19,264 bases of DNA from a virus. The notes below the pieces were generated by a model that was not told the DNA's origin, searched no databases, and saw nothing but the letters and a program-made list of their open reading frames with translations. Positions 8,671 to 18,665 of the stretch are shown piece after piece. Location of the stretch: the IMG/VR virus record IMGVR_UViG_3300021431_000535. One strand, given 5' to 3'. The position numbers and the translations under genes are program-made. Position 1 is the stretch's first letter. Each line of letters opens with the position of its first letter.

Positions 8671-9477
8671 ATGAAATTTGCAGTACCTTTTAGATATAAT
8701 TTTAAATATTTCGATGAAAAAAACATTTAGATTAATATTAATTATAAATATAGTGTAAAAGAATTAACTGATTTTGTAGCATCTTATAGACAATATAGGA
8801 TTAATTTTATTATAAATGAAGATTTAACTTCTGAAGATTATGAATTAATAACGGTATTATTAAAAGAGTATAATAATATTGTTTTATGTTTTCCGGTGTA
8901 TTCTTTCCCTATTGAAGAATTATTAAATAAATATAACATTCCGCATTATTATAATGAGTTTATAAAAGATTGGGATCGTTTCCATGGATTCTTATCTTTA
9001 AATGTAACTGATATTTTTATTGCAGAAGAATTATGTTTTAATTTACGAAATTGTTCAATTCAGGCAAAGAAAAAAGGAAAAAAACTTCGTAGTTATTGTA
9101 ATGTTTGTGAATCTTCTTGGGAAGAGGGCAGATCTTTAAAATCTTTTTTCATTAGACCTGAAGATATAGAGATATATAGTCAATATATTGATACTTTTGA
9201 ATTTTTTCCTTTTAATAGAAAACTGGATGCAACTCGTTTAAATACATTGTATAAAGTATATGCTATTGATAAAAAATGGTTTGGGCAATTAAATGAAATT
9301 ATTGATGGCTATGAAGGTGATGAAGATAGCCGTTTTATTATTCCTCGTTTTGGGGAAGTCCGACCAAATTGTAAAAAGAAATGTTTAGAATCAGGAACAT
9401 GTTATATTTGTGATAGAATTATAGATTTAAGTAAAACTTTAAAAGACAAGAATATTATGGTTACAGTTGATAAATAA
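8671..9477 (+). CDS. hypothetical protein (268 aa) with one in-frame TAG at codon 20 (8728-8730), read through under the proposed TAG reassignment
   Basis: Strong RBS AAAGGAGAAAAT before ATG 8671. The frame is continuous with track ORF 8896..9477; the only interruption is a single TAG, which is where track ORF 8527..8730 stops. Confidence 0.55.
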
Positions 9478-9524
9478 TAAAATTTTTTATATAATATATA
9501 TAAAGATAAGAAAGGTTATAAATT

Positions 9525-9818
9525 ATGAAAAACTATACAAGAACTCCATCTAATTATGTTATTACCCGTAAACAGAAGCGTTATATCGCTAGGCTTAAAA
9601 TGGAACAGGAGCAAAAAGCAGAAACATTAAAAAACATTCAGGAAGCAAAAGAGAAATCTAAAAAAGAAAATAAAAAAGTTAATCCTGAAAAAGGAGAAAA
9701 GTTATTTAAACATAGCTATTCAGTTTTTAAACCGTTGATGCAGGGAAAATTTGTAGCTTATACAAAAGATCCTAGTTACTTTGCTAAAAATTGGCGGAGT
9801 TATGCGGAGGAGAGATAA
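9525..9818 (+). CDS. hypothetical basic protein (97 aa)
   Basis: ORF with RBS AAGAAAGG, preceded by a TATATAAT promoter near 9488-9495. Confidence 0.45.
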   Translation: MKNYTRTPSNYVITRKQKRYIARLKMEQEQKAETLKNIQEAKEKSKKENKKVNPEKGEKLFKHSYSVFKPLMQGKFVAYTKDPSYFAKNWRSYAEER

Positions 9819-10136
9819 ATGGCGGCAAGAGGAACAGAGTCAAAAAATATTATTTTCGCAAAATTACAGGAGGTATTTCCAAACGCATTTTGGGAAGATC
9901 AGGGTAAAATTTTAAGAATACCATTGGATGAAAATGGCGCAAGAGTAGAAGTAAAAGTAACTTTGACAGCAGCAAAAAATAATCTCAAAGATGAAAATGC
10001 AGTTAGTGCTTTTAGTGATACTAATAGTTTTTCTTTAAACGATACGCCAAATAAATCAAACGATATAAAAAGTCTTGAACCTACGCAGGAAGAAAAAGAG
10101 AACGTTAGTAAGCTATTAGCTGCATTAAATTTATAA
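9819..10136 (+). CDS. hypothetical protein (105 aa)
   Basis: ORF whose start overlaps the previous stop (TAAATG). Confidence 0.45.
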   Translation: MAARGTESKNIIFAKLQEVFPNAFWEDQGKILRIPLDENGARVEVKVTLTAAKNNLKDENAVSAFSDTNSFSLNDTPNKSNDIKSLEPTQEEKENVSKLLAALNL

Positions 10137-10143
10137 TAAAAAA

Positions 10144-10431
10144 ATGAGTCATTTATTAAAATATAGTGAGTGGGAATCTCCAACTGGTTGGCATTGTACA
10201 GATATATCAGATTTTGCACATGGTAGCGGATTTTGGTGGCATGTTCCACGTATGCTAGATATTTCTCTTACAGATTATATATTACTTTTAAAAGATGAGT
10301 TTAATGCCATTAATTTTTCTTATGATATAGATAAGAATGTTCTATTATGGAAATGGCCAACTTATCAAGATTGTCATAAATTTGTACTTTTTGTAAATAG
10401 AGAAGCAAGAAAACGTAAATTTTTTATATAA
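10144..10431 (+). CDS. hypothetical Trp-rich protein (95 aa)
   Basis: ORF directly after the previous gene. Confidence 0.45.
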   Translation: MSHLLKYSEWESPTGWHCTDISDFAHGSGFWWHVPRMLDISLTDYILLLKDEFNAINFSYDIDKNVLLWKWPTYQDCHKFVLFVNREARKRKFFI

Positions 10432-10532
10432 ATAAATACTACCTGGCAGGCAAAAATGAATGAAAAAGAATCTGATATAAAAATGCGGTTATTGGGTAGG
10501 CTACAAAATAAAACTGGGAATATGTAGCATAA

Positions 10533-10606
10533 GGGCCTTTAGCTCAGTTGGTTAGAGCATCCGGCTCATAACCGGACGGTCCTGGGTTCGAGTCCCAGAA
10601 GGCCCA
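10533..10606 (+). tRNA. tRNA-Met (anticodon CAT; could equally be an Ile2/lysidine-type tRNA)
   Basis: Cloverleaf with 7-bp acceptor GGGCCTT/AAGGCCC, D arm AGCTCAGTTGGTTAGAGC, anticodon loop CTCATAA, T loop GGTTCGAGTCC. Confidence 0.85.
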
Positions 10607-10626
10607 TTAAAAGGAGGAATAAAATA

Positions 10627-17059: not shown

Positions 17060-17432
17060 ATTAGCTTCCATAAGCAAGCTTTTCTGTCTGGTGAAATGAT
17101 ATATCCGCAGACGTTTTTCTCTTTATCGTAAAAAGAGTTATTATAAATAAGATATACCTTATTTATAATAAAAACAATATACTTAATATAATTAAATTTT
17201 CTGAAACCCCGTTTTTATATTGAAAACTATAGTATATGATAGATCTTAGAATCAGCTAAGTAAAAAATGAAAATATAAAAATATTCATATTTTTTTTAAT
17301 AACAAGAGGAGAGGAAGAGGATTAAGTAGTTCAATTTTTGAACGAAGATGGCAACGTAAACCAACTTTTAGTGTTTCAGCGTTAAGTATTGTTATATTAA
17401 AAATATGAATATAGGGGTTTATTTTATTACAA

Positions 17433-17504
17433 GGCCCAGTAGTCAAGTGGTTAAGACGTCGGTCTCTAAAATCGAAGACTGGGGTTCAATTCCCCGGTGG
17501 GCTA
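17433..17504 (+). tRNA. amber-suppressor tRNA (anticodon CTA, reads UAG)
   Basis: D arm TAGTCAAGTGGTTAAGAC, anticodon stem TCGGT/ATCGA with loop CTCTAAA (anticodon C17466-T-A17468), T arm TGGGGTTCAATTCCCCG, acceptor GGCCCAG/GTGGGCT with one G/G mismatch at 7:66. Confidence 0.75.
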
Positions 17505-17609
17505 GTTTAAAGGTAGTTACAGCAAATTTTTAATTTAAATTTTTAATTTAAAAATATATAGGATAAAATGTTTTCTAATAAAAAATTTTCAATAAACTAC
17601 CTTGTATAT

Positions 17610-17698
17610 GGTCGTATGGCAGAGTTTGGTTTAATGCATTGTCCTGCTAAGACAACGACGGGGAAACCCGTCCGGTGGTTCAAATCCACCTGCGACCG
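17610..17698 (+). tRNA. tRNA-Ser (anticodon GCT)
   Basis: Acceptor GGTCGTA/TGCGACC, anticodon stem TTGTC/GACAA with loop CTGCTAA, long variable arm ACGGGGAAACCCGT, T arm GGTGGTTCAAATCCACC. Confidence 0.85.
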
Positions 17699-17869
17699 CT
17701 AAAGACTTATACTGCAATTTTATTTAATATAACAGACAAGAAAATCTAAATTAAACTGGCGAGTCCTTTCCTATAAGCTTTCATTTATTTTTAAGATTTT
17801 TTCTATTTCTTAGGCTTGGAATCGACTTTCTTAAATGAAGAAAAATGAAAAAATTAGAGTCTTGTTTTT

Positions 17870-17955
17870 GGTGCGGATCTGGCCGGATGAAGACGTAGTC
17901 TTGAAAACTATCGACCGTGATGAGCGGTTTGGGGGTTCGAGTCCCTCCCGCATCG
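17870..17955 (+). tRNA. tRNA-Ser (anticodon TGA)
   Basis: Acceptor GGTGCGG/CCGCATC, anticodon stem GTAGT/ACTAT with loop CTTGAAA, long variable arm, T arm GGGGGTTCGAGTCCCTC. The D arm is irregular. Confidence 0.7.
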
Positions 17956-17994
17956 TTTAGTAATAAAATAAAACGAAAAGGAGATTTTTTATAT

Positions 17995-18534
17995 ATGAAC
18001 GAACCGAGACTTAAAATTTCCCCACCCTGGATAACTTATATTAATAAGCTTTAGGCTCTTTTTGATCCTGATCCTCAAATTGCTTTTAACGTGAAGTATG
18101 ATAGCGGAGCTCCTGAGGTAATTCTAGCAACAAACAATGGAGATAAAGCAACAGCATTAACAAAGCTTATTCCTACTGTCAAAGAATTTGGAAATATTGT
18201 ACTTAAAATTACGATTGATGGACCTTTTACCAATAAAGCTTTTCCTACTTTAACTGATCTTTTTAATACTGCTTTTGAAAAGAATCCAGTTTATGCTTAT
18301 TGCGTTGAACCAGCTCAAGAAGGATATTGGTTTTTTGATTTTGCATATGTTGTTTTTAAAAATTGCGTTGTTCAATTCTTTAATGATAATTTAAATGACG
18401 CTCATGGCGTAATTAGTACACTTTATCAAGACATTGCTGCTGAAATTTTTGAAGAAGCTAATTTACCAAGTGTACATTATTGTACAGATATTGAACAAGG
18501 AAAACTTGGTAAGCCACTTGGAGAATGGCCGTAA
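17995..18534 (+). CDS. hypothetical protein (179 aa) with one in-frame TAG at codon 20 (18052-18054), read through under the proposed TAG reassignment
   Basis: RBS AAAGGAG before ATG 17995. In frame with track ORF 18091..18534; the only break is a single TAG. Verified codon by codon. Confidence 0.55.
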
Positions 18535-18665
18535 TGGATAAAGATCAAAAATCTTTAATGAAGCATTCAGATAATTTTAAATCATTTGAATAGCGATTAG
18601 AAAAAGAGTATCAAAAAGCCGTAAAAAATGGTTTTAAAGGAACAAAAGAAGAATATTTTCAAATA
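18534..18665 (+). CDS. hypothetical small protein (43 aa) with an in-frame TAG at codon 20 (18591-18593)
   Basis: ATG overlaps the upstream TAA (TAATGG). RBS GGAGAA 8 nt upstream. Ends in TAA at 18663-18665. Confidence 0.35.

Follow-up and report, generated by a model that had tools for sequence, protein, structure and literature searches.

The genes of a viral DNA stretch of 19,264 nucleotides (IMG/VR record IMGVR_UViG_3300021431_000535; "the window" below means this whole stretch) contain in-frame TAG codons, several of them close to the start codon. The phage appears to read TAG as a sense codon, most likely for glutamine, through its own transfer RNA (tRNA) with a CTA anticodon. In the lineage to which the window belongs, TAGs are over-represented approximately 1.6- to 2-fold in the first ~20 codons of genes. 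The explanation that we consider probable is that TAG is a sense codon with a termination risk, tolerated best at positions where early termination wastes least.

Reading TAG through resolves this 19.3-kb sequence, which has ~31% GC and nearly all of its genes on the + strand, into a compact gene set with ribosome-binding sites. The terminators of its 23 genes are TAA (19) or TGA (4) and never TAG. ARAGORN finds 15 tRNAs in an array within 10533-19188, and among them is the suppressor tRNA(CTA) that is predicted to read TAG (17433-17504, + strand; 56.6 bits with the Rfam tRNA model). Most of the related recoded loci encode a homologous suppressor tRNA. Conservation among homologues extends to both flanks of in-frame TAGs, and the families of genes 8671 and 17995 (named here by their first nucleotide) align across the codon. 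Orthologues carry CAG or CAA in the column occupied by TAG, and over the 252 TAG columns with comparators the most enriched residue is glutamine (3.8x), followed by glutamate (2.5x). An earlier note on this DNA had taken the TAGs to lie inside real genes and to be read through with the help of an encoded CTA tRNA, and this is confirmed. The window lineage thus needs genetic code 15; the standard code truncates or loses genes 8671, 17995 and 18534 as well as those for the NlpC/P60 hydrolase and the HNH endonuclease.

The system belongs to the known class of code-15 phages, in which it forms a new lineage. Like the crAss-like phages, the Lak phages, the clades of Borges et al. (10.1101/2021.08.26.457843) and phAss-1, it has in-frame TAG in conserved genes and never as a terminator, a tRNA(CTA) within a tRNA array, TAG aligned to glutamine, and low GC. 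Blocks without TAG are mixed with blocks that use it, and the lysin is heavily recoded, as in those phages. Unlike them, the window is part of a separate lineage of IMG/VR contigs of ~90-200 kb that share a Major Vault Protein (MVP)-like gene and the 17995 family. Proteomic analysis of glutamine insertion at TAG has reportedly been carried out for crAss-like phages. Programmed recoding at fixed sites, for pyrrolysine or for selenocysteine with its selenocysteine insertion sequence (SECIS), likewise relies on a dedicated tRNA that decodes a stop codon as an amino acid. In contrast to both, there is no conserved position, local context or cis element here, and TAG swaps freely with CAG and CAA.

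Two relatives provide observations on TAG reading of a different kind. In locus L018, a phage serine hydroxymethyltransferase (SHMT; 17399-18682, NF000586, 528 bits) has its sole TAG at codon 20, within a conserved V*LIASENF motif, and this well-understood enzyme is a possible test case for readthrough. The 8.4-kb locus L033 has a tRNA(CTA), yet the standard code scores much better there than TAG readthrough (-18.8 per kb). TAG is apparently still a stop in part of this suppressor-carrying genome.

The positional bias was measured across the lineage. A search of the GenBank phage set found no close relative of the window, and no related complete genome for a whole-genome tabulation. In IMG/VR, gene 17995 has homologues at 33 loci and the MVP-like gene at 49, on contigs of ~90-200 kb, and many of these loci also encode a tRNA(CTA). 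The sample comprised the window and 87 IMG/VR loci, 43 of them classed as TAG-recoded, with 868 genes in 391 families. Genes were called with our own program, which combines codon log-odds, ribosome-binding-site and start-codon scores and selects non-overlapping genes by dynamic programming with TAG treated as neutral; it reproduces the manual gene calls in the window. Each site, defined by family and alignment column, was counted once, and the null model places codons uniformly within their own gene.

Tabulated in this way against random placement, as the earlier note had proposed, early positions are favoured throughout the lineage. Codons 2-20 contain 95 TAG sites where 56.5 are expected (1.68x, z = 5.6), and the control codons are flat over the same interval (CAG 1.05, CAA 0.99, TTG 1.06, TAT 0.98, AAG 1.01). 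The 5' excess is greatest in genes with only one or two TAGs: sparse-TAG families reach 2.26x (z = 6.2), compared with 1.6x (z = 2.7) for dense families, and single-TAG genes have 16.9 sites at codon 20 or earlier where 9.7 are expected. Of all TAG sites, 16% fall within the first decile of the gene, beyond which their frequency declines weakly. The same pattern is seen within individual families when TAG is set against glutamine codons. In the 17995 family, TAG and Gln codons number 9/17 as far as column 30 and 1/55 after it (p = 8e-5); the 8671 family has 6/2 early and 1/39 later (p = 1.5e-5).

Simple compositional causes do not account for this distribution. A preference for AT or C-to-T mutation at 5' ends is excluded because the C/T codon pairs that alter the same first base (TTG/CTG, TTA/CTA, TAT/CAT and TAC/CAC) show no early shift in their ratios. 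A greater use of glutamine at N-termini is rejected by the flat profiles of CAA and CAG. Tuning of the termination context is also rejected, with an unremarkable base after TAG. We searched the literature on recoded phages and did not find a within-gene 5' bias of the recoded codon reported. The skew, apparently new, offers a simple way to gauge the completeness of the code change in the course of infection, and it may give a design rule for amber-gated genes.

Under the explanation that we favour, tolerance of TAG by position, the host release factor would act on TAG whenever the suppressor tRNA is lacking or in short supply. A stop close to the start would waste little and leave a harmless short peptide, and farther on it would waste more and release long truncated proteins. 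TAG would then persist near the 5' end and be purged with distance from the start, because the cost of termination, as waste and possibly as harmful truncated protein, grows along the gene. Theory predicts that the 5' end is where premature termination is selected against least (PMC13271495 and earlier work cited in it). In that theory of nonsense errors and codon usage, termination-prone codons are likewise predicted to gather at 5' ends, where they waste least. The theory deals with ordinary sense codons, ribosome drop-off and very small effects, whereas here a true host stop is involved and the effect is 1.6- to 2-fold; a TAG that competes with release factor can be viewed as its extreme case. 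The skew shows that TAG is not a fully neutral synonym of CAA and CAG and that its position is under some selection; on this explanation, selection still "sees" the potential stop, more so far from the start.

TAG use within the window is patchy: one block does without the codon, many genes have few TAGs and others have many. The block without TAG (558-8657, + strand) consists of 11 genes that are readable in the standard code. It has 0 TAG codons to 77 CAA/CAG codons, versus 13 to 46 in 8671-18680 (Fisher p = 8e-6), and it contains the MVP-like gene and a Thg1-like gene.

Several points weigh against explaining the bias by tolerance. The effect is modest, and it was measured with our own gene caller on metagenomic fragments in which residual start errors are possible. 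The excess lies in the first decile and is followed by a weak gradient (mean relative position 0.476, p = 0.05), a shape that is not obviously predicted by a model in which cost is purely proportional to length. An unsuppressed TAG costs the same protein yield wherever it lies, so that the cost argument rests on the waste or toxicity of truncated products, which is putative here. The glutamine identity of the suppressor tRNA is drawn from alignments only.

The generality of the bias is a further concern; the bias is real in this lineage and tentative beyond it. The independent 136-kb complete code-15 genome of phAss-1 (OQ749652) served as a stand-in for the missing close complete relative. Our calls gave 146 genes compared with the authors' 147 open reading frames (ORFs), and 44 genes with TAG compared with their 41. 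Codons 2-20 of phAss-1 follow the trend of the lineage, with 16 TAGs where 10.2 are expected (1.57x) and flat controls, a result that is borderline on its own (z = 1.9). TAG falls at codon 20 or earlier in 6 of its 24 single-TAG genes (~2.9 expected from a hand sum of gene lengths), and at codon 20 in none. A pattern scan of IMG/VR for suppressor tRNAs gave 120 loci, only 19 of them usable, independent and recoded, and these are mostly without ribosome-binding sites. The excess in these 19 diverse loci is 1.42x (z = 1.9) with unstable controls (TTG 1.47, TAT 0.71), and their single-TAG genes have no excess. A similarity search with the suppressor tRNA for other recoded genomes was unproductive.

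A second explanation is that early TAGs function as translational gates. The earlier note proposed this, and Borges et al. (10.1101/2021.08.26.457843) had already put the idea forward for recoded phages. Selection would keep a single early TAG in a gene so that no product is made until the phage suppressor tRNA accumulates, and an early site would combine the least waste with the most polarity. Loss of coupling between translation and transcription might silence downstream genes too. As a further possibility taken from classical genetics, early nonsense codons may have a stronger polar effect on the genes behind them. We regard the gate as a rather doubtful explanation of the lineage-wide bias, even though a number of observations fit it. 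Single-TAG genes are biased most strongly toward the 5' end (the 2.26x excess above). The position of the codon turns over while an early TAG is kept (codons 18, 20 and 28 in the 17995 family; 9, 18 and 20 in the 8671 family), and TAG at column 20 is scattered over a neighbor-joining tree. All four members of the family of the small gene 18534 keep a TAG, at different codons, and gene 8671 is the first TAG gene after the TAG-free block. A feature of the published model is also present in that standard-code genes stand apart from TAG genes (the 0/77 versus 13/46 contrast); the model further has lysis or structural genes recoded, and the NlpC/P60 gene carries six TAGs.

An engineered equivalent of such a gate exists in synthetic "leak dampener" circuits (PMC7969014). 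These place an amber codon right after the start of a gene to guard against leaky expression, and they tie expression to a co-regulated suppressor tRNA; their authors also consider how toxic truncated products may be and whether to shift the amber site. The circuits are designed, with TAG directly following the start codon, whereas the natural sites range from codon 2 to ~30 and are known from sequence alone.

The gate explanation is opposed mainly by the genes that do without it. The presence of TAG is unevenly conserved: 8 of 17 distinct 17995 orthologues in recoded loci lack the codon, as do 10 of the 13 proteins in the neighbouring family 12. By family, TAG is kept in 4/4 members of the small-gene family, 5/6 of the 8671 family, 9/17 distinct members of the 17995 family and 3/13 of family 12. 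Densely recoded genes share the 5' excess, and a further gate would be pointless in them. TAG makes up ~38% of early glutamine-type sites in sparse genes, close to the ~29% in dense genes, which is what near-neutral sites would give, and the base after TAG has no bias that would indicate tuning of termination. The favoured early placement thus stands from the original proposal; an obligatory gate is opposed by the orthologues without TAG, the skew in dense genes and the near-neutral TAG share. The data are consistent with a gate, which may operate in some of the genes. A more specific version, in which a single 5' TAG is a selected but evolutionarily mobile on/off switch that ties standard-code genes to the suppressor tRNA and may also silence downstream genes, seems to us unlikely. 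If it were true, early placement would be an adaptation and not mere tolerance.

A third explanation attributes the 5' enrichment to miscalled starts, which add noncoding extensions containing TAG, and to repeated counting of homologues, so that only the recoding would be real. Start errors do occur: at least one early TAG (locus L005, family 23) was in a false N-terminal extension, and Borges et al. also ascribe some N-terminal in-frame stops to such errors (10.1101/2021.08.26.457843). Our first, smaller data set gave mixed results among subsets, with no excess in singleton families or in families with strong ribosome-binding sites in every member; this was settled by a within-gene conditional test on the enlarged set. 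The unstable controls of the diverse loci without ribosome-binding sites also fit an artefact. The enlarged lineage set speaks against one. When genes are restricted to ATG starts with a strong ribosome-binding site and no alternative start, the excess becomes larger (2.04x, z = 6.0). Families with a consensus start and at least three or at least five distinct members give 1.83x and 2.41x, respectively, and the figure is 1.84x for small families whose genes start with ATG behind a strong ribosome-binding site.

Repeated counting fares no better. Taking one random gene per family leaves 1.63x (mean z = 4.1), families without a window member give 1.64x (z = 4.9), and families found only in MVP-anchored loci give 1.47x (z = 2.1). 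The enrichment is kept after members with deviating N-termini are dropped. Early-TAG genes have ribosome-binding sites as good as those of other genes and no alternative start, and the peptides N-terminal of TAG are conserved at the protein level. Together with the flat control codons, these results make an artefact very unlikely.

The sole TAG of each of the ORFs 8671, 17995 and 18534 is at codon 20, exactly as the earlier note had recorded, and that note had suggested selection for a defined position. Family-level TAG sites are spread evenly over codons 2 to 20 (4, 9, 6, 6, 7, 3, 7, 2, 5, 4, 4, 3, 5, 4, 6, 3, 7, 6 and 4 in the 391 families; chi-square p = 0.87 for uniformity). Codon 20 accounts for 4 of the 95 early sites, with 5.0 expected, and for 2 of 80 when window families are removed. 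Orthologues do not keep the codon, with TAG at 9, 16, 18, 28 or 32 or with none at all, and the early single TAGs of phAss-1 are at codons 6, 7, 8, 11, 11 and 18. At early and late sites alike, the base that follows TAG has the same distribution as after control codons, and it is A, G and C at the three window sites. The ribosome exit tunnel holds roughly 30-40 residues. A 19-residue chain would therefore still be inside the tunnel, and the idea of a peptide that just clears the exit does not hold.

Three unrelated window genes coincide at codon 20, and the L018 SHMT adds another TAG there. The triple coincidence has p ~ 2e-5 if placement is uniform and ~2e-4 if it follows the observed 5' bias, yet the pattern was singled out only once the data had been seen, and two of its three sites come from shared ancestry. 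That codon 20 is itself selected, for example through some special property of termination or suppression at a 19-residue nascent chain, can hardly be credited given its ordinary frequency, its instability among orthologues and the position of the chain within the tunnel. The three codon-20 TAGs are ordinary members of the 5'-biased distribution, and their identical number is coincidental. They point to no new mechanism tied to one codon number.

Gene 8671 (8671-9477, + strand; 268 residues) begins with ATG behind an AAGGAG site and has its TAG at 8728-8730. It is the first gene with TAG past the TAG-free block. Its N-terminus upstream of TAG is conserved in L001, L006, L017, L024 and L034-36. 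The aligned column holds TAG in L001 and L006, E in L024, and I or E in more distant homologues. Three of five informative family members have TAG at this column; L001 also has one at codon 18, L017 has one at codon 9, and L024 has none.

Gene 17995 (17995-18534, + strand; 179 residues) is conserved and has the same arrangement of AAGGAG site and ATG, with TAG at 18052-18054. Its 33 IMG/VR homologues align from residue 1, and column 20 varies among them between TAG, CAG, CAA, GAA, GAG and AAG. Several members have their TAG at codon 20, L006 and L012 have it at codon 18, and L020 has it at codon 28. Relatives possess the 17995 and 8671 sites as well in these alignments, and the two are evidently inherited rather than independent. 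Neither family matched anything in Pfam, PHROGs, NCBIfam or PDB sequences. A few kilobases 3' of the 17995 homologue, relatives also encode a ~505-residue protein, of which L012 18075-19628 is one example; it has no NCBIfam match.

The starts of genes 8671 and 17995 are fixed by the N-termini of homologues, which align from the first methionine across TAG. Upstream starts at ATG 8527 and GTG 17917 would shift the TAGs to codons 68 and 46, respectively. They were rejected on the grounds that they overlap a neighbouring gene or a tRNA-like element and have no ribosome-binding site, and that homologues start at the aligned methionine. Downstream starts at GTG 8896 and GTG 18091 were rejected as well, since conserved residues would be lost. 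The check for alternative starts that might move these TAGs out of the early region, suggested in the earlier note, thus found no credible candidate.

The third gene (18534-18680, + strand; 48 residues) is small but conserved, and its TAATG start overlaps the stop of gene 17995; TAG is at 18591-18593. The possibility that this ORF is spurious was considered, with no counterpart directly 3' of 17995 homologues, and was rejected when three orthologues were found that share the C-terminal motif EYQxAxxNGFKGTxEEY. The motif lies 3' of TAG with no intervening start codon. The TAGs upstream of it are at codon 32 in one orthologue, codons 16 and 33 in another, and codons 3, 11 and 12 in the third.

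The NlpC/P60 peptidoglycan hydrolase (11743-12198, + strand; 151 residues; Pfam PF00877, E = 8e-11) starts with ATG behind an AGGAGG site. It has six TAGs, at codons 5, 42, 77, 82, 94 and 129, and the early one at codon 5 is as previously described. Its closest orthologue (L001/L038) has TAGs at codons 22, 30, 33, 34, 82, 85 and 113, and the codon-5 site is missing.

The HNH endonuclease (16378-16809, + strand; 143 residues from ATG 16378) matches phrog_10822 (E = 2e-33) and gives a weak Pfam HNH match. Its four TAGs are at codons 4, 50, 100 and 104. This start is the least certain of the five, with a weak ribosome-binding site and an alternative TTG at 16324. The TAG reported at codon 4 is correct if ATG 16378 begins the gene and becomes codon 22 if TTG 16324 does. 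The PHROG match begins at profile position 70, and the gene may be N-terminally short. Its description as an intron-borne gene is not upheld, with no match to a group I or II intron model near it even at E <= 0.1.

The recognised products of the window are an MVP-domain protein, a Thg1-like enzyme, a papain-like peptidase, the NlpC/P60 hydrolase and the HNH endonuclease. The MVP-like protein (2788-5265, + strand; 825 residues) carries the shoulder and vault repeat domains of the Major Vault Protein, an unusual find in a phage. Its homologues in 49 IMG/VR contigs are 55-85% identical to it, and those in the huge phages LR756500, LR756501 and LR756503 are 37-41% identical. The Thg1-like tRNA-His guanylyltransferase (5354-6115, + strand) is encoded upstream of the tRNA array, and the array includes a tRNA-His at 18921-18995. 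On the opposite strand, two short ORFs in 38-431 are called only with TAG readthrough. Their TAGs are near the 3' ends (codon 47 in one; codons 48, 52, 59 and 64 in the other); these ORFs may be spurious or wrongly extended, and they were left out of the argument for the window.

Two further RNA elements are suggested by the sequence. A stretch at 18736-18845 (+ strand) that abuts a tRNA-Pro gives a sub-threshold match to the Y RNA-like YrlA model (35.2 bits versus a gathering threshold of 69; E = 6e-5). A 16th tRNA that ARAGORN missed is located at 17869-17955 (+ strand) and has the long variable arm of class II tRNAs. Its anticodon loop, CT-TGA-AA, makes it a tRNA-Ser(TGA), and it scores 34.9 bits on the Rfam tRNA-Sec model, which is below threshold. 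Long-arm tRNAs that align to it are found in L020 (18091-18179), L029 (4514-4602), L023 (7128-7224) and L013 (8833-8922). The long-arm tRNAs of relatives have CTA, TCA or, according to ARAGORN, TTA anticodons. Some relatives may consequently use Ser-type suppressors that convert a stop codon to serine instead of glutamine.

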